64,000 bases of DNA from an uncultured Gammaproteobacteria bacterium (GCA_964609155.1 CAZSRF010000001.1:19166-83165); one strand, 5' to 3'; positions 13,221 through 60,673 are shown, counted from the stretch's first letter. Numbers and translations: made by a program. Notes: generated from the letters alone by a model not told the origin.

Positions 13221-13222
13221 GC

Positions 13223-14105: not shown

Positions 14106-14168
14106 GCTGGTTGTACAGTAAGATAAATATTTAAGACCTTACTTGACTTAATAGTTAGTACGTTAGTT

Positions 14169-15404: not shown

Positions 15405-15830
15405 ATGTTCGATCCAAGCAAATTCGTTGTTACAATAAGAAAATTGACTTACGGTGCACTTAAATTTGGCGGAAGAAACCCTTTCAAAGATGAAGAAGAA
15501 CCGTTTGCAGATGCTCTAACTGGCATTATAAAAGTTCAAAATCCTGCTTTATTCTGCAAACAATTCCTTGACTCAGAGTCTGAACTTTCACAGCAAAAAC
15601 TAGAAGACAAACGGCATAAAGGTCTACATATTCGTGCTATCATTTCATCTGGTAGTGGATATATAATGACTGTCACATTTCCAAGAGCACTTTGCATGAG
15701 TATTTTGGCTGTAGAAAGTAAAGATGCTGATCCTTACTCTTCTCTTATAAGCTTCAGGGTGGCTCGTCCTATATTTATCGCAGAGCATAGCTTCGATGAT
15801 GATGTTTCTAAACATCTACATAAACCATAG
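15405..15830 (+). CDS. hypothetical protein
   Basis: 141-aa ORF. No family recognised. Confidence 0.4.
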   Translation: MFDPSKFVVTIRKLTYGALKFGGRNPFKDEEEPFADALTGIIKVQNPALFCKQFLDSESELSQQKLEDKRHKGLHIRAIISSGSGYIMTVTFPRALCMSILAVESKDADPYSSLISFRVARPIFIAEHSFDDDVSKHLHKP

Positions 15831-15866
15831 CGCTAAATTCAAAACTAACGTCTACGTTTATTCCAT

Positions 15867-28851: not shown

Positions 28852-28927
28852 GGCCTGATAGCTCAGTCGGTAGAGCAAAGGACTGAAAATCCTTGTGTCG
28901 GTGGTTCGATTCCACCTCAGGCCACCA
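28852..28927 (+). tRNA. tRNA-Phe (anticodon GAA)
   Basis: GCCTGATAGCTCAGTCGGTAGAGCAAAGGACTGAAAATCCTTGTGTCGGTGGTTCGATTCCACCTCAGGCCACCA matches the E. coli tRNA-Phe pattern. CCA is encoded. Confidence 0.9.
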
Positions 28928-42412: not shown

Positions 42413-42413
42413 T

Positions 42414-43232
42414 TTAAGTTATAACACTTGGCTTTTCGATATATATTAATTCGAATCCTTCTTTGTCTAGTATACTCTCTGATATACCTAAAACAGCGGG
42501 CGATCCTTGTAATGCTACACCAAGTGGCAGCATACAATCAGAAGCTGTTGAAGTAGGCACAGGTGATGGCAAACTTGGTGTTACTATTTTCTCAACGGTT
42601 GGCACTGTAGAGCCAGAGAATAAAGGAAATAGATGTTTTATAGGCACCATAGGGGCTGAAGGAGTTACTGGCGTTGTTGGAGGAGCTGGTGGCAAAACGG
42701 GAATTATATAGGTCGGTAAAATTGATGTTGGTGACGCCATGGGTGTTGGAGTGCGAGGTATTGTAAGCAAAAGTGCATCTCTTGGCTCATGATCAACATG
42801 AGCATGAAATAGACCCAAAACGGTATCAGAACTAAGTTCCTCCCTAAACTCAGATGTGAGTTGTTTATTTATCTCCAATAATCGTTCATAGGATAATTGC
42901 AACAACAAAGTACAGTAAGATGATTCAATAAGACTTTTATCTTGTAATAAAGTTAAGATCTGCGTTAAAGGACGAACAATATCCGAATTAGCACACAGTA
43001 AATCAAGATTAGTTTGATTCAATAATCCAAAGTTATCTAAATACTTCAATACTATATTTAGCTCATGAGAGTCAAACATGGCAGCTTCAATTTTTTCTAG
43101 GTTTTCTGGAGTTGCAAGTTCATCTAAATAAATTTTACTTTGTTCTGTAGGACTTTGTTCAAAGAATATTTTTATTTTTTTATTTAATTTTTCAGGATTT
43201 CTTGCCAACATTGTCCATAAATCGCTTAACAT
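42414..43232 (-). CDS. hypothetical protein with Pro/Thr/Val-rich C-terminal half
   Basis: The N-terminal half is helical. PTPMASPTSILPTYIIPVLPPAPPTTPVTPSAP is low-complexity. Confidence 0.45.
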   Translation of the reverse strand: MLSDLWTMLARNPEKLNKKIKIFFEQSPTEQSKIYLDELATPENLEKIEAAMFDSHELNIVLKYLDNFGLLNQTNLDLLCANSDIVRPLTQILTLLQDKSLIESSYCTLLLQLSYERLLEINKQLTSEFREELSSDTVLGLFHAHVDHEPRDALLLTIPRTPTPMASPTSILPTYIIPVLPPAPPTTPVTPSAPMVPIKHLFPLFSGSTVPTVEKIVTPSLPSPVPTSTASDCMLPLGVALQGSPAVLGISESILDKEGFELIYIEKPSVIT

Positions 43233-43259
43233 TTACCCTCCAACACTCATTATTACAAC

Positions 43260-45359
43260 TCAAACAATAACCAATATTTCTGCTCCCAACTCAACTTGTT
43301 CCCCTTGCTTAAATATTATAGCTTGCACTTCTCCTGCTTGTTTTGCGTATACTGTATGCTCCATTTTCATGGCTTCCAAAATAACTAAAGGGTCTCCGGG
43401 CTGAACTTTCGCACCAACAGAAACATTAATGTTTAATATTGTACCCGGCATAGGAGCAACAATTACATTAGTAGCAGTTTCACCACTACCTTCTCCATTT
43501 GAGTATACATGATCATTTATATAAGAAAATACCCTTTGATTACAATTATTAATGTCAAATACATAAATACTATGATTAATCTTAACAACTCGACTTTTAA
43601 TTAACCGTTGTATACCATTACAACTATAGCTTATATCGTAATATTTATGCTTATTGTGTATTTTAAGCGCCGTACAAATATAATTATTAGTAGAGTCATC
43701 ATCTTTAACAAGCGCATTAAAAGCCTGCTTAACCCCTGTTGTTTCTAAAACAACTGTATCATTTTTATTGAAAATATATTCTCTAGATTTAACACTGTTA
43801 ACTCTAAAGTTTTGAACATTATTCCATGGGTCATTAGTAAAATTGGTAAAATTAGGATAAGCAAAATTTTTTGTTGATTTAAAATTTTCACAAAAATTTC
43901 TGTAAATAGCCGCACTTAAAAGATATATAGGATACTCAATCAGACTATCCTGTATCAAATCAGCATAATATTTCTTAATAAAATCCGTTGATACCATACC
44001 CTGTCTAAAAGACTGATGATTAACGCAAGCAAACAAAAATTTTAAATTTGTATTAATTCCAGTTATGAAAACATTTCGCAAAGTATAGATCAAATTATCT
44101 ATCGCCTTTTCTCGAGTTTCTCCCCAGACAATGACTTTTGCCAGCATAGGATCATAATGAATACTGATCTCATCATTAATTTGAATACCACTATCTATTC
44201 TCGAAATACCATTTATTACATCATTACTTTCAGGATAATTTAAATAAGAAATCTTGCCAGTTGAGGGTAAGAAATTATTATCAACATCCTCTGCGTATAA
44301 ACGAGCTTCGATTGCATGCCCATTAAACTTTAACTCATTTTGATTAAAAGGTAATTTTAAACCATTTGCAACTGCTATTTGAAGTTCGACTAGATCAAGC
44401 CCTGTTATCAACTCTGTTACTGGATGTTCTACTTGTAAACGAGTGTTCATCTCCATAAAATAGAACTTACCAGTATCAGTATCTAACAAAAACTCTATAG
44501 TACCTGCACCAATGTAATCGACAGCCTGACCAGCTGTTAATGCCTGTTCCCCTAATTCCTGACGTAGTTGAACAGATAACGATGGCGCGGGGGCTTCTTC
44601 AATAACTTTTTGGTATCTTCTTTGCAAAGAGCAATCACGTTCAAATAAATAAACGCCATGGCCAAATTTATCAAATAAAATTTGTACTTCAATATGCCTT
44701 GGATCAATTAAGTATTTTTCCAAAATAATATGATCATTAGCAAAGCTTTTAAACGCTTCTCGTTTAGCTGCAGCCACTTCTGTTAATAATGTTTTACCCT
44801 CATGCACTATACGCATGCCTTTGCCACCACCACCTGCAGAAGCTTTAATTAATACAGGATATCCGATTTTTTCAGCAGCAGCATAGAGAACTTCATCTGA
44901 CTGATCATCGCCATTATAACCCGGTAAAATATTAACCTGAGCCTTTGTCATGACCTGTTTTGCTGTAGATTTTAAGCCCATAGCTAAAATAGCTTCGGGC
45001 GTCGGCCCAATAAAGATAAAGCCCTCTGTTATAACTGCTTGAGCAAAATCCGCATTCTCAGATAAAAACCCATAACCTGGATGAATAGCAAGATCCTCGT
45101 GTGGATTTTTTTGTTTTATTAACTTAGCAATGGTTAATATTTTATCAATATTAAGATAAGTATCACTAGCTGCTGTACCCTTAAGAGAATATGCGGCATC
45201 AGCATTCTTAACAAATAAGCTATTTTTATCTATGTCTGAATAAACAGCAACTGCTTTAATGCCCAACTTTTTGCATGTTTTAATAATTCGTACTGCTATT
45301 TCGCCACGATTAGCAATTAAAACTGTTTTTATCATATTTATTTTTCTCGGCAAACCCAA
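43260..45359 (-). CDS. liuD: 3-methylcrotonyl-CoA carboxylase alpha subunit (biotin carboxylase + BCCP)
   Basis: TVLIANRGEIAVRIIKTC starts a biotin carboxylase fold. The C-terminus carries the biotinylation motif EAMKMEHTV. It sits in an operon with liuA, liuB and liuC. Confidence 0.8.
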   Translation of the reverse strand: MGLPRKINMIKTVLIANRGEIAVRIIKTCKKLGIKAVAVYSDIDKNSLFVKNADAAYSLKGTAASDTYLNIDKILTIAKLIKQKNPHEDLAIHPGYGFLSENADFAQAVITEGFIFIGPTPEAILAMGLKSTAKQVMTKAQVNILPGYNGDDQSDEVLYAAAEKIGYPVLIKASAGGGGKGMRIVHEGKTLLTEVAAAKREAFKSFANDHIILEKYLIDPRHIEVQILFDKFGHGVYLFERDCSLQRRYQKVIEEAPAPSLSVQLRQELGEQALTAGQAVDYIGAGTIEFLLDTDTGKFYFMEMNTRLQVEHPVTELITGLDLVELQIAVANGLKLPFNQNELKFNGHAIEARLYAEDVDNNFLPSTGKISYLNYPESNDVINGISRIDSGIQINDEISIHYDPMLAKVIVWGETREKAIDNLIYTLRNVFITGINTNLKFLFACVNHQSFRQGMVSTDFIKKYYADLIQDSLIEYPIYLLSAAIYRNFCENFKSTKNFAYPNFTNFTNDPWNNVQNFRVNSVKSREYIFNKNDTVVLETTGVKQAFNALVKDDDSTNNYICTALKIHNKHKYYDISYSCNGIQRLIKSRVVKINHSIYVFDINNCNQRVFSYINDHVYSNGEGSGETATNVIVAPMPGTILNINVSVGAKVQPGDPLVILEAMKMEHTVYAKQAGEVQAIIFKQGEQVELGAEILVIV

Positions 45360-46198
45360 TTGGGTTTTCTCTTTTCTAAAAAAGCTAATAGACCTTCTTG
45401 TCCCTCTGGACTAACGCGAAGTTTGGCAATAGTATCTACAGAGAAATCTATATCTGTCTGACTAGGAAAGCTGAAACTGGTAAAATTATCAAGAAGTTTT
45501 TTAACGCTTTGCATTGCTAACGGGCTGTTTTGTAATAAATTAGTAATTGTTGTATTTAATAAATCTTCTAGATCATTTTTGGCTATCATACTTACGATAC
45601 CTAATCTATAAGCTTCTTCAGCTGTAAACTTCTCAGCTGTTAGCATGTATCTTTTAGCTTGTTTTAATCCCATCGTTTTTAGAACATAAGGGCTGATTAC
45701 CGCTGGAATTAAGCCTAATTTTACTTCCGACAAACAAAACTCTACTTTATCTAGTGCTAAAACAATATCTGTACAGCATACCAAACCAACACCACCACCA
45801 AAAGCTGCACCTTGTACAACTGATAACGTTGGACAAAAAAAGTTATCTAATTTATTTAAAACTTCTGCTAGTATTTTTGCATCATTATAATTTTCTTCAT
45901 AATCATAATTCACCATTGCCTGCATATGATGAATATCAGCACCGGCACAAAATAATTTACCATTAGCCCTTAAAATTAATAATTTTACATTATTTTGTGC
46001 ACTCAGATAGTTTAAGGCTTCATTAAGACTTGTAATCATTTTACTATCTAATGCATTATGCTTTGCCACTCGATTTAATATAAGAGTTGCAACTCCAAAA
46101 TTGTTTATTTGTAATAATAAATTAGATTCGTAATACGATTTATCAACGAGTATTTTACATTCTAAAGACACCAAAAGTTGTCTCCTCAATTTTTGCAT
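45338..46198 (-). CDS. liuC: methylglutaconyl-CoA hydratase (enoyl-CoA hydratase/crotonase family)
   Basis: The crotonase fold shows in [13 protein letters not shown]...FCAGADI. The start is uncertain: the annotated ATG overlaps the upstream gene by 44 nt. Confidence 0.75.
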
Positions 46199-47777
46199 TA
46201 TAACAACAAGACAAACTTAACCCTAGAATCTCTCGAGTATCCAAGGGATCAATAATACCATCATCCCATAGTCTTGCAGAAGAATAATAAGGATGCCCTT
46301 CTAACTCATACTGTTGGCGAATAGTATTTTGGAAATCTATTCGCTCACTCTCAGGCCAATTTTTACCTTTTGAGTGCAACTGTTCATCTTTAATCTGGGT
46401 AAGGACATTTGCAGCTTGTTCTCCACCCATTACTGAAATACGTGCATTAGGCCACATAAATAAAAATCTTGGGTTATAGGCTCTACCACACATACCGTAA
46501 TTACCTGCACCAAAACTACCACCAATAATGAGTGTAATCTTAGGCACATTGGCACATGCTACAGCCGTCACCATTTTTGCCCCGTGCTTTGCTATGCCTT
46601 CTTGTTCGTATTTCTTGCCAACCATGAAACCATTAATGTTTTGTAAAAATATTAATGGCGTTTTTTGTTGACAACAAAGCTGTATAAATTGTGTAGCTTT
46701 CAAGGCTGATTCAGAAAATAAGATACCATTATTAGCAATGATACCAACCGGCATACCATAAATATTAGCAAAACCACATACAATTGTCGTTCCATATAAT
46801 GCTTTAAATTCATTAAACTGTGAACCATCGACAATTCTTGCAATAATTTCGCGAACATCATATTGTTTTTTGCTGTCTTTTGGAACTATACCGTAGATAT
46901 CAGCAATATTATAACTTGGATCTAAGTTTTCTTTTATATTAACGGCATTAAGATTGACTTGTTTTGAACTAATACCTAAATTATTTACTATTTCTCGTGC
47001 AAGCTCAAGCGCATGGCTATCATTGTTCGCATAGTAATCAGATACACCTGATTTTGTACAATGCACATCCGCCCCACCTAACTCCTCGCTGGTGATTATT
47101 TCACCAGTTGCTGCTTTAACTAGAGGTGGACCAGCTAAAAATATTGTTGCATTTTGACGAACCATAATACTATAGTCTGCCATTGCTGGGACATAAGCAC
47201 CACCAGCAGTGCAAGATCCCATGACCACAGCAATCTGTGGTATTCCAGCAGCAGACATTCTCGCTTGATTATAAAATATTCTACCAAAATGTTCTTTATC
47301 AGGAAAAACTTCTGCCTGGTGTGGTAGATTAGCTCCTCCAGAGTCTACCAAATAGATGCATACTAAATTATTTTGCCACGCAATTTCTTGTGCACGTAGG
47401 TGTTTTTTTACTGTAATAGGATAATAAGTACCACCCTTAACTGTTGCATCATTACAAATAATCATGCATTCACGACCATGTACCCGACCTATCCCAGTAA
47501 TCACGCCTCCAGCCGGCACATCATCTGTATACAACTTATAGCCAGCAAATTGTGATAATTCTAGAAAAGCACTACCAGGATCTAGTAGTTGTTCGATACG
47601 TTGTCTAGGCAATAATTTTTGACGACCACGATGTTTATCTTGTAGTAATTTACCACCACCTTGAGAGATAATTTTTACTTTATCTTTTAAATCTTTTACA
47701 AGATTTGTATAATACTCAAAGTTTGTTTGAAACTCCGCCTGACAGGTTTGCTCTAAATCAATTTTACTTTTTAACAT
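46155..47777 (-). CDS. liuB: methylcrotonyl-CoA carboxylase beta subunit (carboxyltransferase)
   Basis: It is an acyl-CoA carboxyltransferase family protein, paired with the alpha subunit in the leucine-catabolism operon. Confidence 0.8.
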
Positions 47778-48988
47778 GCTTGAATCCCTAGCGCAATAGC
47801 CTCACCCCCACCAATACATAAGGACGCTATACCGTACTCTTTTTTATTAGCGTGTAACGCATGAACTAAAGTTGTTACAATCCTAGCACCAGTAGCACCT
47901 ATTGGATGACCAAGAGCGCAAGCACCACCATTAATATTTACTTTTTCATGAGATATATCCAAATCTTGCATTGCAGCCATCGTAACAACTGCAAACGCTT
48001 CATTTATTTCGAACAAGTCTATATTTGAAACAGTTAAATTAGTCTTATCTAATAAGTTTTTTATAGCAGTAACTGGTGCAGTTGTAAACCAGGCAGGTTC
48101 TTGAGCTATTTCAGAATAACTTATAATCTTCGCAAGAGGCTTTAGATTTAATTCTTTAGCTTTGGACAAACGCATTAACAATACCGAAGAAGCACCATCA
48201 GAAATAGAGCTAGAATTTGCAGCAGTTACCGTGCCAAATGCTATATTTTCTGGTTTTACAAACGCAGGTGATAACTTTGGTATTTTGTCAGTATCAATTT
48301 TGCCAGGAGTTTCATCCTCTAAAAAAGTAACTTGCTGTTTTTTAACAACTGTATTCACTTGAGCAATCTCATTATTAAATACATTATTTTTTACAGCATT
48401 CTGAGTTCTTTTAGCAGATATCAAGGCAAATTCATCTTGGGCCTGTCTTGTAAATTTATATTTCTGAGCTGTCAGCTCTGCAAAATGTCCCATCAAGCAG
48501 CCCTTATCATAAGCATCTTCCAAACCATCATAGAACATATGATCTATCAACACTCCATGTCCAAGCCGCAAACCCGCTCTGGCTTTTGGAATTAAATACG
48601 GTGCTTGCGTCATATTCTCCATACCACCTGCAATAATAATTCTGTTAGAGTCAGCTAATAAATTATTATAGGCCAAGACTATTGCTTTTAAACTGGAACC
48701 ACACATTTTATTAATTGTGGTACAAGGTGTTGTTAATGGCACTCCACCCATAATAGCTGCCTGGCGCGCTGGAGCCTGTCCTAGCCCTGCGGACAAAACA
48801 CAACCCATTAATATCTCAGTAATTAAATTTTTATCAATTTGTGATCGCTTTAACACTTCAGCTATTACATTAGCTCCTAATTGAGTTGCAGAAATATTAG
48901 AATATATTCCCTGAAATGCACCTATTGGTGTCCTTAACGCTGAAACAATAACAACAGGATTTGTTGATTCGGTAAAATTATTATCCAT
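47771..48988 (-). CDS. acetyl-CoA C-acetyltransferase (thiolase II)
   Basis: The thiolase active-site regions are present ([29 protein letters not shown]). Confidence 0.85.
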
Positions 48989-50147
48989 TTTTTAATAGTT
49001 CTCTTCCTATTAGCATTCTTCTAATTTCTGATGTGCCAGCTCCTATTTCATATAACTTAGCATCACGCAATAATCTTCCAGTTGGGTATTCATTAATGTA
49101 ACCATTTCCACCTAGACATTGGATTGCTTCTAAAGCCATCTTTGTCGCATTTTCTGCGCAATATAAAATTACACTAGCAGCATCTACACGATTAACTTTG
49201 TTATTATCACAAGCACGTGCTACCGTGTATAAATAACTTCTACTAGCATTTAAAACAGTATACATGTCTGCTATTTTACCTTGTATAAATTGGAAATCTC
49301 CAATAGCTTTTCCAAATTGCTTGCGCTCGCGAACGTACGGCAATACAACATCTATACATGCCTGCATAATTCCAACAGGACCAGCTGCGAGTATGACTCG
49401 TTCATAATCCAACCCACTCATTAAAACTTTGGCACCTTCGTTTACTTTACCTAGAACATTATCTCGTGGCACCATACAATTATTAAACACCAGCTCACAT
49501 GTATTTGAACCACGCATACCCAATTTATCAAGCTTTTGAGCCGTACTAAAACCTTGAAATTGTTTTTCTATAATAAATGCTGTTATATTTTCGCTAGCTT
49601 TTACACTATTATTTGTTCTTGCATAAACAACAAGTGTATTCGCCTCTGGACCATTAGTAATCCACATTTTATTGCCATTTAATACGTAGCCATCATCTTT
49701 AGCTTCTGCTTTTAATTGCATGCTTAACACATCCGAACCTGAGTTTGGTTCACTCATAGCTAATGCGCCAACATGTTCACCTGAAATAAGCTTTGGCAAG
49801 TATTTTTGCTTTTGCTCTTTTGTGCCATTAAGGTTTATTTGGTTAACACATAAATTACTGTGCGCGCCATAGCTCAATCCGACGGATGCAGATGCACGAG
49901 AAATTTCTTCCATCGCACAGGCATGATCAAGATATCCCATTCCTGCACCAAAGAACTCTGTTGGTACTGTAATCCCTAACACCCCTAAACTGCCTAGTTT
50001 TTGCCAAAGCTCATGGGGAAATAGATTATTCTTATCAATCTCTTCTGCAAAAGGTGCTATGACACGAGCAGAGAACTCATGAACAGTTTTTTTTAAAAGT
50101 TCTGTTGTCTCCGGAAGGTTAAAATCCATATTAGCGCTGTAGATCAT
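48981..50147 (-). CDS. liuA: isovaleryl-CoA dehydrogenase
   Basis: It has the acyl-CoA dehydrogenase fold ([16 protein letters not shown]) and is first in the liu operon. Confidence 0.8.
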
Positions 50148-50188
50148 ATATCCTCACACTCCTAAACTTTGTATAATTACTTATAGTG

Positions 50189-51187
50189 TTACTTTTCCAA
50201 AGCTGCAATTTTATTAGTCAATTCAGGTAAAATCTCAAATAGATCACCTGCCAAAGCATAATCAGCTATTTTGAATATTGGTGCCTCTTCATCTTTATTA
50301 ATAGCAACAATTATTTTACTATCTCTTATCCCCGCCATATGTTGAATAGCACCTGAGATACCTACAGCGATGTATAAATCTGGTGCCACTACTTTCCCTG
50401 TTTGACCAACCTGACAATCATTGGGAACAAAACCTGCATCCACTGCTGCTCGCGATGCTCCTACTGCAGCATTTAATTTATCAGCTAAATCATTTATCAA
50501 TTTAAAATTTTCTTTACTGCCTACTCCGCGTCCTCCAGACACAACAATTTTAGCTACACTGAGCTCAGGCCGTTCAGAATTACTAAGTTCATATTTAACA
50601 AATTTTGTTAACTTTTTACTGGTAAATTTTGCAGCATCAAGCTCAACTAGAGAAGCACTATTATTAGTGATCTTATTACTGTTCAAATTACTAAAGCAAG
50701 TTGTTCTAATGGTTAGTAACTTTATTGAATCATGTAGTTTAACTGTTGCAATAGCATTTCCTGCATAAATAGGTCTTTTGAAAGTATCTTTATTCAAAAT
50801 TTCAATAATGTCACTTAAAGGGTTTATGTCTAATAGAGCTGCCAATCTAGGCGCCAGATTTTTACCAAAAGTCGTCGCAGGGAGTAAGATATATTGATAA
50901 TTTTTAGCAATTTCTAATAGTAAATCACAAAGATCTTCTGCTAGATTATACTCATAAATTTTATCATTAGCGATAATGATTTTATTTAGTAACCTTAAAT
51001 CTGTTAATTGCTTTGTTATAGTTGCTAACACAGCTGTTTCAAAATTTCCAGCTAAAAATACGTCAAGATTAATATCTTTACTGTCAGTATCAACATGCTC
51101 TAAAAGGTTTATTCCTGCAGACAACGTTGCTAGACTCGCTGATTTCAAATGCTTATTATCATGCTCTGCAATGACTAATATATTCAT
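50189..51187 (-). CDS. etfA: electron transfer flavoprotein alpha subunit
   Basis: The C-terminal FAD-binding region carries the EtfA signature ([13 protein letters not shown]). Confidence 0.85.
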
Positions 51188-51218
51188 AGTATATTCACCA
51201 TTTGTTATACTTTTTGTT

Positions 51219-51971
51219 TTAAATTAATTTTTCAACCATACGCAGTTTATCAATTAACTCATCTACATTGCTTACTTTTATACCTGCTAACCGAGCTTTT
51301 GGTGTATGCACTTCTAATATTTCAGGAAGATTATCTGCATCAATACTGTCTAATTTATGAATCGCTAAAGGTTTTGACTTTGCTTTCATAATATTAGGCA
51401 AACTTGCATATCTTGGTTCATTTAATCGTAGATCTGTTGTAACTATAGCCGGTAATTTTACTTCAACAGTTTGTAATCCACCGTCAATTTCACGTGTTAC
51501 AACCATTTCGCCACTTTTACCTAATTCTAATTTAGAAGCAAATGTAGCCTGAGGCCAATGTAATAACCCAGCTAGCATTTGGCCAGTTTGATTATTATCT
51601 TGATCTATTGCTTGTTTTCCCATGATAACTAAACCAGGTTGTTCTCGTTCTATTACTTGCTTCAATATTTTAGCTATTTGTAATGGGTATAACTTTATAC
51701 CTAAGGACAACTCTTGTAATATCGCTCTATCTGCTCCCAAAGCTAAAGCAGCCCGTAATGTTTCTTGCGAGTCAGTAGCACCTACTGTTACTACAACGAC
51801 TTCTGTTGCAATATTTTTTTCCTTCAGACGTATCGCTTCTTCTACAGCAATTTCATCGAAAGGGTTGATTGCCATTTTGGCATTACTTAAATCCACATCT
51901 GAATTATCTGCTTTAATTCTGACTTTAACACGATAATCTAATACTCTTTTAATGGGAACCAAAATCTTCAT
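51219..51971 (-). CDS. etfB: electron transfer flavoprotein beta subunit
   Basis: MKILVPIKRVLDYRVKV is a typical EtfB start, taken at the fourth codon of the ORF. Confidence 0.85.
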   Translation of the reverse strand: MKILVPIKRVLDYRVKVRIKADNSDVDLSNAKMAINPFDEIAVEEAIRLKEKNIATEVVVVTVGATDSQETLRAALALGADRAILQELSLGIKLYPLQIAKILKQVIEREQPGLVIMGKQAIDQDNNQTGQMLAGLLHWPQATFASKLELGKSGEMVVTREIDGGLQTVEVKLPAIVTTDLRLNEPRYASLPNIMKAKSKPLAIHKLDSIDADNLPEILEVHTPKARLAGIKVSNVDELIDKLRMVEKLI

Positions 51972-52141
51972 CAGAAACAAATCTCTCTTTTATTTGTTTA
52001 GTTACTTACGTTTTATTTGAGGCTAAATAGTAAATGCGGTGAATAAAATGAATAAAAATAAATCATATTCTATACCCAATTTGTACCTATTTATACCAGA
52101 GATAATAATTAAGCGTGATAAAATATTGTAATATACAGTCA

Positions 52142-52263
52142 GGACTTACGCAAAAAACCTGTCATACTAGCCGAAGAACCGGTATCTTACAAAACAGATT
52201 TCGGTTCTGCGCACTGAGTGCTTGACCGATATGACAACTTAGGATCATTCTGCGTAAGTCCTG
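52142..52263. repeat. 122-bp MITE-like repeat, copy 2
   Basis: It is a paralogue of 9039..9160 with the same terminal inverted repeats. It sits in the divergent etfB / ETF-QO promoter region. Confidence 0.75.
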
Positions 52264-52302
52264 ACAGTCTTAACATGAATGTTAGAAAATTAGGTTACTT
52301 AT

Positions 52303-53970
52303 ATGAGCACACAAACTAATCCAGGCCATGAGATCATGTCTTATGATGTAATAATAGTTGGCGCCGGACCAGCAGGTTTAGCATCTGCAATTGCCTTAAA
52401 ACAATTTGCAAAAAAGAATAATATAACAATTTCTGTCGCCCTCTTTGAAAAAGGTTCTTCAGTAGGCTCTCATATTATTTCTGGTGCTGTATTTGAAGCT
52501 GATAGTTTGTCCGAGTTAATCTCTAATTGGCAAACATTAAACCCACCAACATTTACTAAAGTTATAGCAGACAAGTTTTATTTTATGACTAAGCATCATA
52601 AATTAAGATTGCCTACTCCTGGCTCTCTAAATAATTATCATAAAAATAATTATATTATTAGCCTTGGTGAATTATGCAAATGGCTTGCGCTACAAGCAGA
52701 AAATTTAGGAGTTGAGATTTATCCTGGATTTGCCGCTGCATCTGCTTTAATTCGAGGTAATCAAGTCTATGGCATCAAAACTAACGATCTTGGCATTGAT
52801 AAACATGGCAATAAAACCGATCTATTTCAACCAGGAATAGAAATCCATGCAAAGCAAACTATTTTAGCAGAAGGATGTCGAGGTTCAATCAGTAAACAAA
52901 TTATTCAACATTTTGAATTAGCAAAAGATTCAGCTCCTCAAACTTATGGATTAGGGATAAAAGAAATTTGGCAAATAGACAACAAGTATCACCAACTGGG
53001 AACCGTTGAGCATTCAATAGGCTGGCCATTAGATAACTTTACTTATGGCGGCAGTTTTATCTATCATTTACCAGAAAATAAAATAGCCTATGGCTTTGTA
53101 ACCGGTCTAGATTATACCAATCCTTACTTCAGCCCATTTGAAGAATCACAGCAGTTTAAGTTACATCCTAAAATAAAACACTTATTTGAAAACGGTGAAC
53201 GTATTAGTTATGGCGCACGTGCCTTATCTGAAGGTGGTTATCAAAGCTTACCCAAACTCACGTTTCCTGGCGGACTTATTGTTGGTGATGCTGCAGGGTT
53301 TTTAAACGTTGCCAAAATAAAAGGCTCCCATAATGCCATCCGATCTGGAATTATCGCAGCTCAATCAATCATTGATGACTATCTTACTAATATACAAAAC
53401 AAAAAACCTGCCCTACTATCTACAGAAATATATTCTTATCAAGAAAATATTTCGCGTTCTAAAGTTGCCGTAGAATTATATAAAGTCCGTAATATCCGCC
53501 CGAGCTTTAAATATGGACTGGTTGCTGGCCTGTCTTACAGTGCGTTAGACTACTATGTGCTGCGTGGCAAAGCTCCTTGGACCCTTACTCACCATACCGA
53601 CCATAAAACTCTCATCAAAAACAGCCCGCCAATTATTTATCCAAAAGCGGATAATAAGATAACTTTTGATAGGTTGTCTTCTGTTTTCTTATCTAATACC
53701 CACCACAACGAAGATCAACCTAGTCATCTAAAACTGATAGATCCAAGCAAAACTGTTGAAATCAATTACTTACAGTACCACGGCCCTGAGCAATATTATT
53801 GCCCAGCTGGTGTTTATGAGTACCTAAAGGACAGCTCCAATAAACCATATTTACAAATCAACAGCCAAAATTGCATTCATTGTAAAACTTGTGATATAAA
53901 AGACCCCACACAGAATATTAACTGGCAAACTCCTGAAGGCGGCGGTGGGCCTAATTATATTGATATGTAA
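52303..53970 (+). CDS. electron transfer flavoprotein-ubiquinone oxidoreductase
   Basis: FAD-binding VIIVGAGPAGL near the N-terminus and the C-terminal 4Fe-4S ferredoxin-like region (CIHCKTCDIKDP) are present. Confidence 0.85.
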   Translation: MSTQTNPGHEIMSYDVIIVGAGPAGLASAIALKQFAKKNNITISVALFEKGSSVGSHIISGAVFEADSLSELISNWQTLNPPTFTKVIADKFYFMTKHHKLRLPTPGSLNNYHKNNYIISLGELCKWLALQAENLGVEIYPGFAAASALIRGNQVYGIKTNDLGIDKHGNKTDLFQPGIEIHAKQTILAEGCRGSISKQIIQHFELAKDSAPQTYGLGIKEIWQIDNKYHQLGTVEHSIGWPLDNFTYGGSFIYHLPENKIAYGFVTGLDYTNPYFSPFEESQQFKLHPKIKHLFENGERISYGARALSEGGYQSLPKLTFPGGLIVGDAAGFLNVAKIKGSHNAIRSGIIAAQSIIDDYLTNIQNKKPALLSTEIYSYQENISRSKVAVELYKVRNIRPSFKYGLVAGLSYSALDYYVLRGKAPWTLTHHTDHKTLIKNSPPIIYPKADNKITFDRLSSVFLSNTHHNEDQPSHLKLIDPSKTVEINYLQYHGPEQYYCPAGVYEYLKDSSNKPYLQINSQNCIHCKTCDIKDPTQNINWQTPEGGGGPNYIDM

Positions 53971-54078: not shown

Positions 54079-56025
54079 ATGCTTTTTACACACCGACTAT
54101 TACAACGTAAAGTCCTTGCTGGACTTTTGTTTCCCAAAATGAAAGGGGACGGCTTCAAATCTCGTGGTTTTAAAGGATTTAAAGAGTTTTATGCCTCTTT
54201 ATCAGACAAAACAAGCCGACAATTTTCTGAGGCTTTTGTTGGCTGTGAGGGCCATGAGACTCCAGATGTAACCACAGTTTTAGCTAGCACTGGACAAAAA
54301 GTAACTGTTGATTTAGTCGCAATTGCTCCAACACAAGATTTCCTAGCTGCCCATCCCCATTTACCTGGTAAAGACCTTCATATTGTAAATTTTCCTGCTG
54401 CTTTTGATTACTATGAAAGCATGGGATGTTTAACGGATAATTCTTTAGAAGCCAAAGCAACTGGAGCTACTGTTCATACGTTTAATTATCCAGGTATCCA
54501 CCGTTCAAAAGACGGTAGAATTACTGAATTTAATGATCTAGTCAATACAGGTATTGCCGTTGTTAATAAGCTATTACTTGACGGTGTACACCCAGATAAG
54601 ATAGTCCTACAAGGTGATTGTTATGGTACTGCAGTAGCCTTTGCGGTACAGCAAGAGTTTGCAAAAAAAGATATAAAAGTACGCCTTATTGCATCAAATA
54701 CTTTTGGTTCATTTAAAGATACAGCTGATAAAAATATTCGTCAACAACCTAAAGCTTTAGGTTTAATTTTAACCAAGTCTTACATCCGCTATCTTTTAAA
54801 ACAAACTGGATGGAGCATTAAAGTAGGAGCAGACTTTATAGACTCCGATCCATACAAAGCTGTATTACAACGTGAAGATGACAAAACCTTAGGTGAAACT
54901 ACTTTACTAAAACGTATAGCCAAATATATAGAAGAACGAACAGCAGGCAAAGTGTTGTCCCCTAAAAGTAAACGCAAAGAAGTAAAACCTGATACTTGCC
55001 CTGAAGAGTACCAAGAAGCTCGCAAAATACTTGAAGCTATACAATGGATTAAACTTAAACCAGAAGAAAAACGCAAAGAAGGCATCAAATTAGGAGCAGG
55101 CTCAAAATTACAAGCGCTTCTTAAACCACTAAAAGGCTTGAAGTCTGTAAAATCCACTATTAACCAATTAATTTCACTGTATATTGCTGCTCATGATGAA
55201 AAAGCTTTTACAGAACAAACAACTACATTTCTAAAGGCTACAAACTCTGTTACTTCCATAGCAATATATCAAGCCCTAAAAGCAGCTGATACACAAGAAA
55301 ATCAAGATAAAGTTGATGCTCATCCTTTGTCTTTACATCAATTTGCTGATGCTTTTGAATTTATAGCTAAATATTTAGAGCTTTCGAATGATTATATAAA
55401 ACAGCATCCTCAATCTCAGCAAAAATTTAATAAGTCACTACTTCCAGCTTTTAAAAAAACTGGAGTTCCGTTAATGACCATCTCTAACTGTATTTTACAA
55501 GGAATATTTTCTGGTATTATAGCAACAGCTCTGTTTTTAGCAATTGTTAACCCAGTAACTTTACCATTTTTATTAGGATTAATTGGATCTACAATACCAT
55601 CTTTAGCCTTAACGTATTCTATGATGACTATAGGCAGTTTAGCAGTTTTTGGAATAGCTGCTGCTATTTCCTCAACCCTAGTGTCATGTCTATTAACAAT
55701 TTCTAAAAATACTCTATTAGGAATAAAAAATGCTATCTTAAATATTTCACAAGGCCATCGTTCTAGAAATCAAGGGAACACTAAAGGATCTGAACTTGAA
55801 GATGAAACTCCCACGCCAATATTAGTATCTTCTGAAAGTGACAAAGAGAGTGATGCGTTACCAAGCAGTCCTCTTCGTAAACCTGCACTAATCATCCATA
55901 GAGAAGATAGAACAAAACAAACAAGTTGTGATATGTTTATAACAGGCAGTAGAGAAATTAGAATAAAACAACAGCGTGAAGAATTATTGTCTATGCCTAA
56001 ACAGGCTAAGTTAGCACCATTCTAG
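54079..56025 (+). CDS. membrane-anchored alpha/beta-hydrolase-fold protein, Cys in nucleophile elbow (GDCYG)
   Basis: The N-terminal ~230 aa align with the hydrolase domain of 61980..63254 (GDCYG vs GHSMG; IASNTFGSF vs IFNDRSFGT). A C-terminal bilobed hydrophobic segment and a charged tail follow. The start Met is uncertain. Confidence 0.55.
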   Translation: MLFTHRLLQRKVLAGLLFPKMKGDGFKSRGFKGFKEFYASLSDKTSRQFSEAFVGCEGHETPDVTTVLASTGQKVTVDLVAIAPTQDFLAAHPHLPGKDLHIVNFPAAFDYYESMGCLTDNSLEAKATGATVHTFNYPGIHRSKDGRITEFNDLVNTGIAVVNKLLLDGVHPDKIVLQGDCYGTAVAFAVQQEFAKKDIKVRLIASNTFGSFKDTADKNIRQQPKALGLILTKSYIRYLLKQTGWSIKVGADFIDSDPYKAVLQREDDKTLGETTLLKRIAKYIEERTAGKVLSPKSKRKEVKPDTCPEEYQEARKILEAIQWIKLKPEEKRKEGIKLGAGSKLQALLKPLKGLKSVKSTINQLISLYIAAHDEKAFTEQTTTFLKATNSVTSIAIYQALKAADTQENQDKVDAHPLSLHQFADAFEFIAKYLELSNDYIKQHPQSQQKFNKSLLPAFKKTGVPLMTISNCILQGIFSGIIATALFLAIVNPVTLPFLLGLIGSTIPSLALTYSMMTIGSLAVFGIAAAISSTLVSCLLTISKNTLLGIKNAILNISQGHRSRNQGNTKGSELEDETPTPILVSSESDKESDALPSSPLRKPALIIHREDRTKQTSCDMFITGSREIRIKQQREELLSMPKQAKLAPF

Positions 56026-56041: not shown

Positions 56042-58231
56042 TTAATTTCTAAAAAAAGTTCTATTTAGTTTATTATATATAGCCCACATCAATGAGGTAT
56101 TATAAGTCTGCACTTTTATAATACCCTTTGCCATTTTGTTATTGTAATTGCATTTTTTATCTGCTGATAAATCAATAGTAAAATACGAATCAACTGACAC
56201 CCAATTAGAATCTTCGTCTATATTAAAATTAATATCTCCACCATAATTAGAAGCAAATAATAATATATTAGAATTAACTAATTTGCTTTGCGCAACCTCC
56301 AGCGCAACAAATGGCTCATTAGAAATCTTACCTATAGGATCGCTTGCAATTGATTTAAACTGCAGGCGACAAACTGCTGAGTCTGATTGATCTGGAATGA
56401 AAATTGCTTTTAAATCTTTATTCAGTGATTTATCCTTTTTGTTATACAAATCTGGCAGTCTTGATAGATCTTGTGACCGAATAAAGGCCTGCACGGCCAA
56501 GCTATCTTGACTTGTAACATCTAAAAGCCACGTATTTTCCGCAAGCCACAAACCGGGGTTCAATCCTGGAGAAATTGCCGTAACTTTACCTATTATGGGT
56601 GATAAGATTTGTAATTGCTTATTTTTAGCAGCAATATTTTCTACCATGACTTTTTGTTGTTCAACTTCTGCTAACTTAGATTCAGTAAACTTGTGCTCTT
56701 TATCTGACAGCTGTTCCCCTAATGCTTCATATTTTTTTGTATCATAATTTAACTGGTTAATAATTTTCTTTTCTTCTAACTCTAGACTTGTTAGTAATAA
56801 CAGTTCTTGGTTAACAAGAACATCTTGTTCTAACTGAGTATCGATTTTATCAACTCTAGATATAAAAGGGGTGTAAAGTCTTTGAGTTTTACCATAAAAT
56901 ACTGCTGGTAAATAAACATAGCTGCTAAAAGGCATCCACGCTAATAAAAAAACCAAACAAAATACACTTGTAGTTACAATAAGATTTGTATTCATCTGAA
57001 TCTTTTGTCGAAACAGATAAAGATTATAGATCTCTTTGCTTATAGGAACAGTAATTAATAATACAATGCTAATTAAAAATAAAAAACCACCAATAAATTC
57101 AATATAATATAAAAAAGATATTATTGAAATATATAACAATAGACGATATATACCACTTAAAACGGCAAAAACAGTAAAAAATTGAAATTTTTTACTATCA
57201 TACGATTCTGGCAATATGGAATCTATGCCTAATATAATTGTTCTATAATAATATTTTAAAACAGCGAAGCTTCTTGGTCCAAGATTTCTTATTCTTAAAT
57301 AATCGGAGAGTATATAATAACCATCAAAGCGCATAAACGGCATAATATTGATAGCTAAAGACACAACCCATGAAACAGCTGCGATAAAAAATAACAAATT
57401 TTTGAATATAGTATCATCTGGCAAAAGTAACCAAAAAAATCCTGCAATTATTGCTAAATATATCTCTAATCTAATCCCTGCCGTAGAAACAACCAACCGT
57501 TTCTCAGGAGTTAATAAAATCGTCTGCGACACATCCGTATAAAATATAGGATAAAAAAATATAAAATTCACGCCCATCTCAGGCACCTTGCAATCATACA
57601 TCTTGCTAGCATATGCATGGCCAAATTCATGGATAACTTTTGTAAAAACTACTGTAAAAGCTATCAATATAATATTTGTCAAATTATTTACGCTTGGGAT
57701 ACTTGCAGTAAAACTGCCCCATTGATTAGCTAGTAAATATAAGTCAATAAAAAAAATGCAAATGATAGCAAAAGCCATTTTTTCGGAAAAAACAAATTTA
57801 ACTTTATCTTTGGTATAAGACAAAAATTTATCTGGATTAAATAAAGAAATTCTATAAGAAAAAATTTTTCCTAAATATCCGAGGAATAATAAAAGAGGTT
57901 TTTTTCTGTTTTTTTCTAATGATCTTAGCGTTTGATTGCTTAATTGCAGTAAATTATTATTTAAAAGAAATTTGAAAACTTGACTAATAGTATCTTGATT
58001 GATATTATAAACAGTGTCGGCGTTTACTGCCTGAATAATGGCATTGTTAGTTCCTAAGCTCCAGTTATTAATTATTTCATACTCAACCTTTCCTAAGTAA
58101 TAGTATTTATCAGTAATTTTATCTCTTAATATCCAAACTTTATCTTGCCAGAAATCTATGCCTGCATAGGATAATTCGATTGTACTTTTCAATGCTGGAA
58201 GATAGAGCAACTGTTCTGATGATGGTTGCAT
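56042..58231 (-). CDS. site-2-protease-like M50 intramembrane metalloprotease fused to HlyD-like periplasmic coiled-coil/barrel domain
   Basis: HEFGHAYASKMYD (HExxH) lies within a predicted TM helix in a multi-TM core. The C-terminal ~250 aa form a coiled coil with an HlyD-like beta domain (SPIIGKVTAISPG). Confidence 0.6.
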   Translation of the reverse strand: MQPSSEQLLYLPALKSTIELSYAGIDFWQDKVWILRDKITDKYYYLGKVEYEIINNWSLGTNNAIIQAVNADTVYNINQDTISQVFKFLLNNNLLQLSNQTLRSLEKNRKKPLLLFLGYLGKIFSYRISLFNPDKFLSYTKDKVKFVFSEKMAFAIICIFFIDLYLLANQWGSFTASIPSVNNLTNIILIAFTVVFTKVIHEFGHAYASKMYDCKVPEMGVNFIFFYPIFYTDVSQTILLTPEKRLVVSTAGIRLEIYLAIIAGFFWLLLPDDTIFKNLLFFIAAVSWVVSLAINIMPFMRFDGYYILSDYLRIRNLGPRSFAVLKYYYRTIILGIDSILPESYDSKKFQFFTVFAVLSGIYRLLLYISIISFLYYIEFIGGFLFLISIVLLITVPISKEIYNLYLFRQKIQMNTNLIVTTSVFCLVFLLAWMPFSSYVYLPAVFYGKTQRLYTPFISRVDKIDTQLEQDVLVNQELLLLTSLELEEKKIINQLNYDTKKYEALGEQLSDKEHKFTESKLAEVEQQKVMVENIAAKNKQLQILSPIIGKVTAISPGLNPGLWLAENTWLLDVTSQDSLAVQAFIRSQDLSRLPDLYNKKDKSLNKDLKAIFIPDQSDSAVCRLQFKSIASDPIGKISNEPFVALEVAQSKLVNSNILLFASNYGGDINFNIDEDSNWVSVDSYFTIDLSADKKCNYNNKMAKGIIKVQTYNTSLMWAIYNKLNRTFFRN

Positions 58232-58235
58232 AAAT

Positions 58236-59642
58236 CTAACCTACCTTATAGTACCATTGGCGTATTTTTAAATAAGGTTTTTGAAATATATATCTAATCA
58301 AACTAATTTTTTTAGGACCATAGATCTTAACTTGTCCTTGATCCCCTATGATTAGATCAGAGTCCTCCATAGCAAACTCAGGAGTAATTTTAGCAAGTAA
58401 TCTATAGGCAATTTTTTTTTGGGGTGTAACATAAGCTTCAAAACTATAATACTTTAATTTTGCTGTTACAGCTTTGAATGGATTTTTATTTGAATAATAA
58501 TATAATTCACTATCTTTTTCTAAGTTAATATTGTCATTTATGTTAAGCCAAATTTCTATTTCTTGTTCATTTTTATCAGCTAATCTCATTAATGTTTGAC
58601 CAACTTTAACTGGTTTACCTAAGAGATCATCTTTACTCTTAAATAACACTATTCCTGCTTCTGGGGCAGTAATTTTACTCATCCCTATTTGTTGTTCTGC
58701 ATATGATATTTCCTGTTGCTTAACACTCATATCTTGTTGAAGCTTAAAAATTTTCCCGCGTTGTTCCTTATCTTGAAATCCTAATGCTTGTGCTTGATCA
58801 TGTTCTGCTTCTAACGTTTTCAATTCTTTCTTTTTTAATTGTAAAGTATTATCTAGATCAATTTGATCATACTCTAAAAGTAATTGATTTTTTACAACAG
58901 CACTATTTGGTTCAACGTGAACTTTTTTAATAGCCCCACTTACTGGTGCATTAATCAACCATGATTTTTCACTAATAATTTGCGCTGGCGCCATAACAGT
59001 TGGAGTTAATTTAACCAAAAATAATAATGCTATGGCAATCAAAATTATCCATAGAATATTTTTTCTAATATAGTTTGTATAAAAACTTCTTCCTATGTTA
59101 GATCTTTTTTTTGTCTTAGCAAAGAATTGTAAAGCTTGACTGTATGACTTAATGATTAAATTAAAATTTATTAATTCAGCATCTGAATATAGCTGATTAT
59201 TAAATAATATTAGGTAAGTATTATCATTATTTAATTCATTTCTTAATTTGGCTACTAATAATTCTTGTCCTAATTCTTGCGCCCAATCTTGTTTAAGATT
59301 GTCAGGAATATTTCTAATAGATAATACTTTTTTAGTATCTTTAAATTCTGAAGTTTTTATTATTTGTGAATAAAATAATTCAGTGATTATATGTTGAAGC
59401 CACTGATGGAAACTCTTGCTTGCTTTTTGATCTTTGGTATCGAGCGTTCCAGAGATACTAATTAGTTCTGCGTTATTATTCTCAATAGTGAATAACACAG
59501 CTAGCTGGTATTTTATTACTTTATAAGAGTCATTGACGATAAGATCAGCTAACGATGCATAATCATGAGACTCTAATATGCTACTTTGAAGAGCGAATAG
59601 TTTACTTATTTGTTCTGATTGCATATTAAGTTGGATTATCAA
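58236..59642 (-). CDS. HlyD-family periplasmic adaptor with ~190-aa N-terminal cytoplasmic domain
   Basis: TM anchor (ILWIILIAIALLFLV), then biotinyl/lipoyl-like APVSGAIKKVHV, a coiled coil and a beta-barrel. It lies 5 nt upstream of the M50 gene. Confidence 0.65.
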   Translation of the reverse strand: MIIQLNMQSEQISKLFALQSSILESHDYASLADLIVNDSYKVIKYQLAVLFTIENNNAELISISGTLDTKDQKASKSFHQWLQHIITELFYSQIIKTSEFKDTKKVLSIRNIPDNLKQDWAQELGQELLVAKLRNELNNDNTYLILFNNQLYSDAELINFNLIIKSYSQALQFFAKTKKRSNIGRSFYTNYIRKNILWIILIAIALLFLVKLTPTVMAPAQIISEKSWLINAPVSGAIKKVHVEPNSAVVKNQLLLEYDQIDLDNTLQLKKKELKTLEAEHDQAQALGFQDKEQRGKIFKLQQDMSVKQQEISYAEQQIGMSKITAPEAGIVLFKSKDDLLGKPVKVGQTLMRLADKNEQEIEIWLNINDNINLEKDSELYYYSNKNPFKAVTAKLKYYSFEAYVTPQKKIAYRLLAKITPEFAMEDSDLIIGDQGQVKIYGPKKISLIRYIFQKPYLKIRQWYYKVG

Positions 59643-60561
59643 AAGTTATCTGACCGCTCAAGCCAGCAATTAACTTCTCCGGCTCAGCAATAGGTTCCAT
59701 GAGCTTTCCGAATACATCGATAGTCTGACTAGTCGGTTCTACTTCTGCCCCAATTCTATTAACGATGCCCTTATAACAAGTTTTACTTAAACATAATTTG
59801 AACGTTGTGCCTTGTTTCAACCAACTTATCCAGGCAAATGGCACATAAGCTTTTATAAGTAAATCTTTAGTATTATTAACCGTCATAAGTGCCTGACCAG
59901 CTGAAACATATTCTCCCTCCGTAACACTTACTGTAATTATCTTTCCATCATAATTAGCTTTAATAACACAATTTGTTATTTGATATTCTAATTTTTCTAT
60001 AAGTTTTTTTGTTTGTTCTAATTGAGATTCAGCTTCTATTACAGAGTATTTACTAGTTGACTTTAGCTCTTGTAATTGTTTTAAATTGTCCAATACTGCT
60101 GCTTTGTCTTTAGCTATGGCTGTTTGGACTGCTAGATCCAATGCAAGTTCTTGGCAATCAAAAGTTATTAAAATATCATCTTTAGAAAAACTTTGACCAT
60201 CGTTGTATGGTATCGATTTTATTCTCCCTGCTCGTAAACTACTTATAGTCAGCTTATTATTTGCAACGATTAAACCAGGTGTTTCATATACGGGTGGTGG
60301 CGGTGGAGGAGGCTGTTTTTTTGCACTTATCTGTGCCGGAGCTTGTACAGGTTTATTAGTTGAGGGTTTGTGTTTAATGGTATCAAGATTAATTTTTTTT
60401 CGACAAACTAAACTTCCATAGGTTTTCCCTAATAGATTACAATTTTTACTGTATTTTATATAAACAGTGAGCACAGCTAGAATTATCAATAACAAAAATA
60501 ATAGTGAAAACACCGATTTGGTCAATCTACTAAATTCTTTTGGTTCTGGGATGCTATTCAT
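59626..60561 (-). CDS. HlyD/RND-type periplasmic adaptor subunit
   Basis: TM anchor, a poly-Pro linker (PPPPPPP), a lipoyl-like beta hairpin and a short coiled coil. It overlaps the next gene by 17 nt, suggesting translational coupling. Confidence 0.65.
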   Translation of the reverse strand: MNSIPEPKEFSRLTKSVFSLLFLLLIILAVLTVYIKYSKNCNLLGKTYGSLVCRKKINLDTIKHKPSTNKPVQAPAQISAKKQPPPPPPPVYETPGLIVANNKLTISSLRAGRIKSIPYNDGQSFSKDDILITFDCQELALDLAVQTAIAKDKAAVLDNLKQLQELKSTSKYSVIEAESQLEQTKKLIEKLEYQITNCVIKANYDGKIITVSVTEGEYVSAGQALMTVNNTKDLLIKAYVPFAWISWLKQGTTFKLCLSKTCYKGIVNRIGAEVEPTSQTIDVFGKLMEPIAEPEKLIAGLSGQITFDNPT

Positions 60562-60673
60562 GTTATGAAGAAATTTAATGTATAAACACTAATACCATAT
60601 AAATAATATATATAAATATAGTAAATTATGTAATATTGTAAATCTAAGTTTTACTAACTAGCCGAGATATAAA

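Follow-up and report, generated by a model that had tools for sequence, protein, structure and literature searches.

A three-gene membrane-fusion protein operon with a fused M50-type protease and no pump gene nearby: a divergent member of a large, apparently unstudied family of putative envelope modules

What is the role of three adjacent genes for periplasmic adaptor proteins when no gene for a pump accompanies them? This question is raised by a stretch of 64,000 nucleotides from an uncultured Gammaproteobacteria bacterium (GCA_964609155.1, CAZSRF010000001.1:19166-83165), which as a whole is referred to as the window. Between positions 56042 and 60561 it contains three closely spaced, co-directional open reading frames (ORFs) on the minus strand, named A, B and C in the order of transcription, and each encodes a protein with a membrane-fusion protein (MFP) module of the HlyD type. 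A first-pass annotation had described them as a three-gene operon of adaptor-like proteins, and the reading frames lie where it placed them. The best explanation that we can offer places the trio, as a divergent member, in a very large and apparently unstudied family of envelope-spanning modules, for which the canonical set consists of a TolC-like outer-membrane factor (OMF) together with A, B and C. Coordinates of all features are collected in Table 1.

The trio is bounded by an isochorismatase/SDR gene pair on one side and by the convergently transcribed gene of a 648-aa hydrolase on the other, which ends 16 bp from the stop codon of C. The junctions differ slightly from those initially given. 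B and C are separated by 4 nt rather than 5 nt, and the 17-nt overlap between A and B holds only if B initiates at TTG; with the ATG at 59624 (MQSEQ..., 462 aa) it is replaced by a 1-nt spacer. The ATG is probably the true start, as it agrees with the start of the homologs and with a 100% identical protein of 462 aa (P0121) from an NCBI contig. The statement that no transporter or TolC gene occurs within 4 kb can be extended: ORFs resembling an OMF, carrying an ABC signature or coding for an additional MFP are absent from the entire window. Promoter and terminator scans were uninformative, promoter-like sites, such as the weak one upstream of A, not being enriched relative to shuffled sequences. 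The idea of a defence system was dropped because none of the three proteins matches a PADLOC model.

Protein C unites three parts in a single polypeptide: a soluble N-terminal domain of ~140 aa, a membrane core of ~7 transmembrane (TM) helices and a periplasmic MFP module of ~290 aa. The core has the characteristics of M50/site-2 proteases (S2P), with an HExxH motif (HEFGH) at the end of a TM helix and the second motif NxxPxxxxDG (NIMPFMRFDG). The residues H201, E202 and H205 of the first and N295, F302, D303 and G304 of the second motif are invariant in an alignment of 19 homologs. With 26.0 bits, C stays just below the gathering score of Peptidase_M50 (PF02163; 27.2 bits), for which precomputed matches exist in many of its relatives. 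The best matches in NCBIfam are daptide_HExxH (NF041824, 5e-34; 9e-49 for a canonical family member) and YydH/LiaK (NF058609, 1e-11), with scores that are far from the equivalog cut-offs (118 vs 300 bits and 44.8 vs 225 bits, respectively). In the PDB, the family profile of C matches the archaeal S2P MJ0392 (3b4r, 5e-4) and many MFPs. Based on the two motifs, their invariance in the 19 homologs and the daptide_HExxH match, we classify C by its sequence as an M50-type protease in spite of the sub-threshold Pfam score. The match of C to HlyD_3 is also weak; by fold, its C-terminal half is nonetheless a complete MFP, with Foldseek matches to MexA/AcrA/MacA at an E of about 1e-11. The annotated fusion of an M50 metalloprotease to an HlyD domain was thus borne out.

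The N-terminal domain of C has a predicted structure that matches the RiPP recognition elements (RREs) of lasso-peptide systems, where RiPP stands for ribosomally synthesised and post-translationally modified peptide. W33, D37 and W57 of this domain are invariant in the family. We consider it to be RRE-like, a predicted relative of the leader-binding RRE/PqqD type.

The other two proteins are adaptors with a single TM helix each, as was expected when two further HlyD-family members were postulated beside the fusion. Protein A matches all three adaptor models in Pfam (HlyD_3, 3e-18; HlyD_D23, 5e-11; Biotin_lipoyl_2, 9e-10) and also RND_mfp in NCBIfam (3.5e-24). Protein B matches HlyD_3 (4e-9), and its AlphaFold2 model has a pLDDT of 80. 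The cytoplasmic N-terminal domain of B (~195 aa) had been noted as unassigned, with ~190 aa; the domain exists, but it can be assigned, as it contains a GAF domain. The lipoyl-like domain, alpha-hairpin and beta-barrel of an adaptor are found behind an N-terminal membrane anchor, and the MFP modules of the trio are complete folds that include the alpha-hairpins.

The trio is far from being restricted to the window. A word-index search yielded more than 1,700 proteins, some 700 aa in length, to which C can be aligned from end to end. By an exhaustive search with a hidden Markov model (HMM), the family has 5,848 or more representatives at 50% identity (E<=1e-30), the top 150 all being full-length fusions. 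A scan of species-representative genomes confirmed at least 592 loci, distributed over Alpha-, Beta- and Gammaproteobacteria, Desulfobacterota, Nitrospirota, Scalindua and SAR11. For an analysis of gene context we selected 83 non-redundant related loci with flanks of up to 10 kb. A crude ORF caller found the order A-B-C retained in 41 of the 61 loci with enough sequence, which answers the question whether the trio is conserved in other genomes, and an ORF of the GAF-containing B type occurs in 75 of the 83. The window has the arrangement typical of the family, with A, B and C in that order on one strand. Public annotations of the relatives are generic ('HlyD family efflux transporter periplasmic adaptor', 'biotin/lipoyl-binding protein', 'putative peptide zinc metalloprotease'), and NCBI lists relatives under the name 'efflux RND transporter periplasmic adaptor subunit'. 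In three loci (L014, 12245-14638; L021; L037), C is followed by a pair of conserved ~390-aa proteins that have no Pfam match.

Two properties of the gene context carry our interpretation. The first is the combination of a linked OMF with a missing pump. A gene for a TolC-like OMF (PF02321) was found in 52 of the 83 loci, nearly always directly upstream of A, while no pump family recurs among the clusters of neighbouring genes. ORFs that resemble an ATP-binding cassette (ABC) protein, with Walker A and LSGGQ, are limited to six loci, where they are scattered and not of exporter size. Neither in the window nor in the family loci are the adaptors accompanied by an energised transporter, be it of the ABC, resistance-nodulation-division (RND), major facilitator superfamily (MFS) or PET type. 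The family is also not a regular type I secretion system (T1SS): it has MFPs and, in those 52 loci but not in the window, an OMF, but an ABC exporter and RTX repeats are missing. The possibility that this is a known system which always sits beside a transporter gene, considered by the first-pass annotation as a reason to abandon its proposal, finds no support in the 83 loci, at 77 of which a pump is absent.

One might still argue that A, B and C are ordinary efflux or T1SS adaptors that serve an ABC, RND or MFS pump encoded elsewhere, with the protease fusion being an accessory. All three proteins do have bona fide MFP modules, NCBI names some relatives as adaptor subunits of RND transporters, and a remote pump could be located beyond the 10-kb flanks. 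It would then be strange that the OMF is kept in the operon at 52 loci while the pump is absent at 77. The place of the pump, moreover, is filled by three distinct adaptors per system, of which two have a cytoplasmic domain and one has 7 TM helices. We regard this explanation as very unlikely.

The OMF also bears on regulated intramembrane proteolysis (RIP), which is close to what had been proposed initially: the adaptors would act as periplasmic sensor or scaffold, and the target of C would be a membrane protein, for instance an anti-sigma factor in signalling or an envelope protein that has stalled in quality control. S2P-family proteases classically work in RIP cascades, the GAF domain of B is a typical signalling module, and a few loci have histidine kinase genes behind the cluster. 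Yet genes for sigma or anti-sigma factors do not recur next to the cluster, an RRE-like domain would suit a soluble leader at the N-terminus better than a substrate in the membrane, and the OMF within the operon together with three complete, hairpin-bearing MFPs favours a duct. RIP is thus distinctly unlikely in our opinion.

An OMF gene need not be adjacent in every lineage. In some lineages, e.g. in the SAR11 loci L047 and L069, the OMF is unlinked while a giant gene of the type described below adjoins the trio, which makes it plausible that the OMF acts in trans in the lineage of the window as well. Loci from Pseudomonas (L004/L063/L087, 12109-22097) and Marinobacterium (L007/L071, 12261-17198) have no adjacent OMF but, behind the trio, another gene set, which codes for a GNAT acetyltransferase, a DUF6916 protein, a phage-tail-collar protein (PF07484), a PMT_2 glycosyltransferase and a sulfotransferase and which is followed by a LEPR/DUF4347 giant. 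The enzymes encoded by this set hint at modification of the cargo.

The second property is the association with giant proteins. The cluster is adjoined by ORFs whose lengths range from 900 to over 2,800 aa, typically in the order giant-OMF-A-B-C, and some of these ORFs overlap or abut the OMF gene. The encoded proteins contain cadherin, Ig-like, He_PIG, tandem-95 or DUF4347 repeats and look like adhesins. Every giant with an intact N-terminus has the motif '...ALEPRxMFDGA...' at ~10-50 residues from its start. Upon comparison of eight giant N-terminal peptides with NCBIfam models, NF012209 (LEPR-XLL) was the top match for seven, three of which exceed the curated cut-off. A strict LEPR pattern is found in 30 of the 83 loci and never in reversed translations; in a further 24 loci the 5' end of the giant ORF is cut by the locus edge. 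Altogether, a giant or LEPR neighbour is present in 54 of the 72 informative loci. The giants have no Sec-like hydrophobic core, and none of the 39 giant neighbours carries C-terminal RTX repeats.

Giants such as those in L013 (45-6095), L027 (225-6305), L046 (73-6261) and L079 (55-6234) have a second conserved element in common, 'GKPxLxxQ(L/F)', which lies at a distance of 19-49 residues from the C-terminus. Of 38 giants, 15 possess it, whereas it is absent from all 38 internal control windows and occurs at only 5 of the 663 C-termini that belong to other ORFs. It may be a second recognition signal, e.g. for the GAF domain or the OMF.

The giants also help to weigh a reading in which the module matures and exports small peptides, as in RiPP or bacteriocin systems. 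The RRE-like domain would bind the leader of a short precursor, the M50 protease would cleave it, and the adaptors would hand the peptide over to the OMF. It is in favour of this reading that the best HMM matches of C are to the daptide and YydH/LiaK metalloproteases, that its N-terminal domain resembles the RREs of lasso-peptide systems, and that giant cargo is not encoded nearby in the clade of the window. The scores are nevertheless much too low for equivalogs, and genes for precursors, modification enzymes or an ABC exporter are found beside the trio neither in the window nor in its relatives. The gaps in the window leave no room for a peptide gene: within the operon they measure 4 nt and about 1 nt, and the operon is bordered by 112 bp on its upstream side and 16 bp on its downstream side. 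The neighbours which do recur in the family are giant LEPR-XLL proteins, not small ORFs. For these reasons we consider small-peptide maturation unlikely.

We instead propose a T1SS-like duct, composed of three adaptors and an OMF, in which the component in the inner membrane recognises and cleaves an N-terminal leader rather than pumping; we would give this core of the model an even chance. The duct itself is suggested by the OMF in the operon and by the three complete MFPs with their alpha-hairpins. By analogy with hexameric MFPs, A, B and C may join in the inner membrane to form a single periplasmic duct that docks on the OMF. As no pump gene accompanies the family, the intramembrane metalloprotease of C would take the position that is otherwise held by a pump. 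Its RRE-like domain, as suggested by its fold and by gene linkage, would bind the N-terminal leader of the cargo, which is mostly the LEPR-XLL motif 'ALEPRxMFDGA'. The leader would be presented to the HExxH site and cleaved, and its removal could be coupled to export or to release at the surface. The GAF domain of B might serve as a gate that responds to a small ligand or to a partner. In the lineage of the window, the OMF and the leader-bearing substrate would be encoded elsewhere, or the class of substrate may have changed.

Taken as a whole, OMF and A/B/C might represent an unrecognised Gram-negative route for export or surface display, a pump-less and GAF-gated duct in which an RRE-guided protease removes the LEPR-XLL leader of giant adhesin-like proteins. 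The window copy would then be a lineage-specific derivative with a different leader-bearing substrate in an intracellular, Legionellales-like bacterium. This complete picture is tentative, and we would rate it below even. The more general proposal of the first-pass annotation, an uncharacterised envelope processing or export module, fits the OMF and LEPR-XLL linkage in the family.

Several points weigh against the model. To our knowledge, every MFP-OMF machine has an ABC, RND, MFS or PET partner, so that the motor is the weakest point of the model, and with flanks examined up to 10 kb a pump might still be encoded farther away from the loci. No giant or LEPR gene is found nearby in 18 of the 72 informative loci. 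Sequence searches with the N-terminal domain of C gave no significant similarity to RREs. The other points concern the window itself. Neither the window nor the available sequence of the six clade loci contains OMF genes, giant ORFs or LEPR-like motifs, the latter being absent also when the pattern is relaxed. This clade is on a long branch, and its nearest outgroups are OMF-linked. The C-terminal '...RESGF' tail that is usual in the family is missing from C in the window (56045-56120) and also from P0002 and P0005. The family-level model may thus not be transferable to the clade of the window. The same three proteins have two insertions in the MFP barrel region of C.

In the six clade loci (L001, L008, L088-L091; 45-95% identity), the bare trio occupies the same chromosomal site, with genes for isochorismatase, SDR and branched-chain keto-acid dehydrogenase on one side and for ETF-QO/ETF on the other. 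A comparison of the window with L001 gave dN/dS values of 0.073 for A, 0.091 for B and 0.051 for C. Values for other genes in the same comparison are 0.112 for ETF-QO, 0.044 for the SDR, and 0.289 and 0.206 for two hydrolases. By this measure, purifying selection on the trio is strong in the lineage of the window, and the invariant residues of the catalytic motifs and of the N-terminal domain are kept in the window copy. The idea that the trio is a relic or a set of pseudogenes is ruled out by its dN/dS values of 0.05-0.09 and by the intact motifs.

The gene downstream of the trio varies among relatives and codes for an SdbB-like hydrolase, an ankyrin-repeat protein, He_PIG/ephrin-receptor-like proteins or an unknown protein. 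In L008 (61% identical), two same-strand proteins with eukaryote-like ephrin-receptor-like/TNFR cysteine-rich repeats and He_PIG Ig domains follow the trio (12253-16758), the first of which has 895 aa and a Sec-type signal peptide. L088 (GCA_013558375.1, JACCDG011151785.1) has a 53% identical trio with the same synteny, followed by an ankyrin-repeat protein; its contig index of more than 1.1 million suggests a bacterial symbiont or contaminant in a eukaryotic assembly. The window clade is probably Legionellales-like and host-associated, as indicated by SdbB/C-type effectors, a GC content of 33%, ankyrin and eukaryote-like neighbours in relatives, and a Coxiellaceae metagenome-assembled genome among the distant matches.

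Two membrane-anchored hydrolases, described in the first-pass annotation as paralogues that flank the operon, had been suggested as substrates or cargo of the trio. Only the 648-aa hydrolase adjoins the operon, while the other is two genes away. A close kinship of the two can be rejected, as they hardly align (BLASTP E 0.012), even though both match the model of the SdbB/SdbC Dot/Icm effectors (NF045526; 8e-82 and 6.5e-11). A role as cargo would be compatible with adjacency, the nearer gene ending only 16 bp from C, and with the hydrophobic C-terminal regions that both proteins have. Their match to an effector model, however, makes them probable type IV secretion substrates. Close relatives have different genes at this position, transcription of the nearer hydrolase gene converges on that of C, neither of the two has a LEPR-like leader, and their dN/dS values are 3-5 times those of the trio (0.21-0.29 vs 0.05-0.09). 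That they are handled by the trio is scarcely credible.

Beyond the operon and its surroundings, the window contains a 6S RNA, two tRNA genes and a leucine/isovalerate-type catabolic cluster. The latter comprises genes for acyl-CoA dehydrogenase, thiolase, carboxyltransferase, enoyl-CoA hydratase and biotin carboxylase beside those for ETF-alpha, ETF-beta and ETF-QO, and its order is conserved across the clade.

Table 1 Features of the window discussed in the text. Positions are counted from the first nucleotide of the window.
Feature	Position	Strand	Remarks
Gene A	59626-60561	-	311 aa; TM-MFP, membrane-anchored periplasmic adaptor
A, TM helix	about 60457-60513	-	aa 17-35; only TM helix of A (hydropathy)
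A, MFP module (lipoyl/hairpin/barrel)	about 59629-60279	-	after Pro-rich linker
Gene B	58236-59642	-	468 aa from TTG start; GAF-TM-MFP
B, cytoplasmic GAF domain	59193-59621	-	aa about 8-150; GAF fold
B, TM helix	59001-59057	-	aa 196-214; sole TM helix of B
B, periplasmic MFP module	58239-59000	-	follows TM helix
Gene C	56042-58231	-	729 aa; RRE-like domain, M50-type intramembrane metalloprotease and MFP in one polypeptide
C, N-terminal cytoplasmic domain	57947-58189	-	aa about 15-95; beta3-alpha3 RRE/PqqD-like fold (predicted structure)
C, M50/S2P-type membrane core	56927-57802	-	aa 144-435; ~7 TM helices (hydropathy, NCBIfam, Pfam)
C, HEFGH zinc-binding/catalytic motif	57617-57631	-	aa 201-205; end of TM2, right after TM segment aa 178-196
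C, NIMPFMRFDG second S2P motif (NxxPxxxxDG)	57320-57349	-	aa 295-304; gives third zinc ligand Asp
C, periplasmic MFP module	56045-56920	-	aa 438-729; alpha-hairpin aa 483-539
Intergenic region 5' of A, divergent	60562-60673		112 bp
Promoter-like site upstream of A	60615-60642	-	10/12 consensus match, weak
SdbB/SdbC-type alpha/beta hydrolase	54079-56025	+	648 aa; convergent to C; Cys at nucleophile elbow (QGDCYG)
SdbB/SdbC-type alpha/beta hydrolase	61980-63254	-	two genes from operon; canonical HGHSMGG
6S/SsrS RNA	11745-11941	+	Rfam, 47.8 bits, just over gathering score
tRNA gene	13796-13868	+	Rfam
tRNA gene	28852-28924	+	Rfam
Leucine/isovalerate-type catabolic cluster	about 40973-53970		synteny with L001 (14239-22190) and L088

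If the model is correct, thousands of bacterial species hold a secretion or processing route which is absent from current lists of secretion systems. Carriers of the family include Pseudomonas, Chromobacterium, Phytobacter, Nitrospira, SAR11, methanotrophs, rhizobia and anammox bacteria, and in those that can be cultured the model is directly testable. The LEPR-XLL motif, an orphan signal, would gain a candidate receptor in the RRE-like domain and a candidate protease in the M50 core, and its purpose would thereby be explained. The model also raises the question how an MFP-OMF duct could work without an ABC, RND or MFS motor. For the organism of the window, the trio points to a conserved envelope function beyond the repertoire of type IV effectors. 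The value of the analysis lies mainly in the family-level picture and is tempered by the window copy being devoid of an OMF and of cargo context.

A full-text literature search, subscription-only work being outside its reach, returned no description of an M50-MFP fusion, a GAF-MFP protein or a LEPR-XLL export machine, and LEPR-XLL or DUF4347 were mentioned there only in annotation remarks. To this extent the system is indeed uncharacterised, as had been assumed from the start. Whether it is a genuinely new export pathway, a tripartite MFP-OMF system with an RRE-guided intramembrane protease in place of a pump, is more doubtful than not, but a comparison with known systems brings out what would be new.

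A close parallel is provided by the T1SS for giant adhesins (HlyB/HlyD/TolC), as exemplified by LapEBC and its substrate LapA, with the protease LapG and the cyclic di-GMP receptor LapD. It shares with the family a membrane-anchored MFP with a cytoplasmic extension, a TolC-like OMF and the linkage to genes for giant, repeat-containing, adhesin-like proteins. In the LapA system, as is proposed for the family, a protease acts on the N-terminus of the adhesin, and a partner in the inner membrane has a cytoplasmic sensor domain. In contrast to the T1SS, the family has no ABC transporter and three different MFPs rather than one. Its protease is an intramembrane M50 enzyme fused to an MFP while LapG-type enzymes are periplasmic cysteine proteases, and its sensor is a GAF domain rather than the GGDEF-EAL of the LapD type. 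The cargo also differs, having a conserved N-terminal LEPR-XLL motif and no RTX repeats.

For leader removal as such there are precedents in SpoIVFB acting on pro-sigma-K, in the leader peptidases of RiPP systems and in the C39 domains of peptidase-containing ABC transporters (PCATs). The HExxH leader peptidases of RiPP systems (NF041824, NF058609) are the nearest sequence families for the N-terminal domain and M50 core of C and share both HExxH and NxxPxxxxDG. C differs from them by an extra TM helix and a periplasmic MFP module of 290 aa, and its loci lack RiPP biosynthetic genes; the neighbouring proteins range from 1,000 to over 2,800 aa. Lasso-peptide systems also combine an RRE (B1) with a leader peptidase (B2), but the latter is a cysteine protease whereas that of C is a zinc-dependent intramembrane enzyme; sequence similarity between their RREs and C is undetectable, and the putative substrates in the present case are giant proteins. 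PCATs, which consist of a C39 peptidase and ABC transporter that work with an MFP and an OMF, resemble what is proposed for C in that an N-terminal leader is cut by a protease within the inner-membrane component of an MFP/OMF route. They differ in using C39 instead of M50, in having an ATPase, and in joining the protease to the pump rather than to the adaptor. SpoIVFB, finally, is an M50-family enzyme that trims a short N-terminal prosequence from a cytoplasmic precursor, as is envisaged for C, but it operates without MFP, OMF or RRE, and what it yields is a transcription factor, not a protein destined for export.

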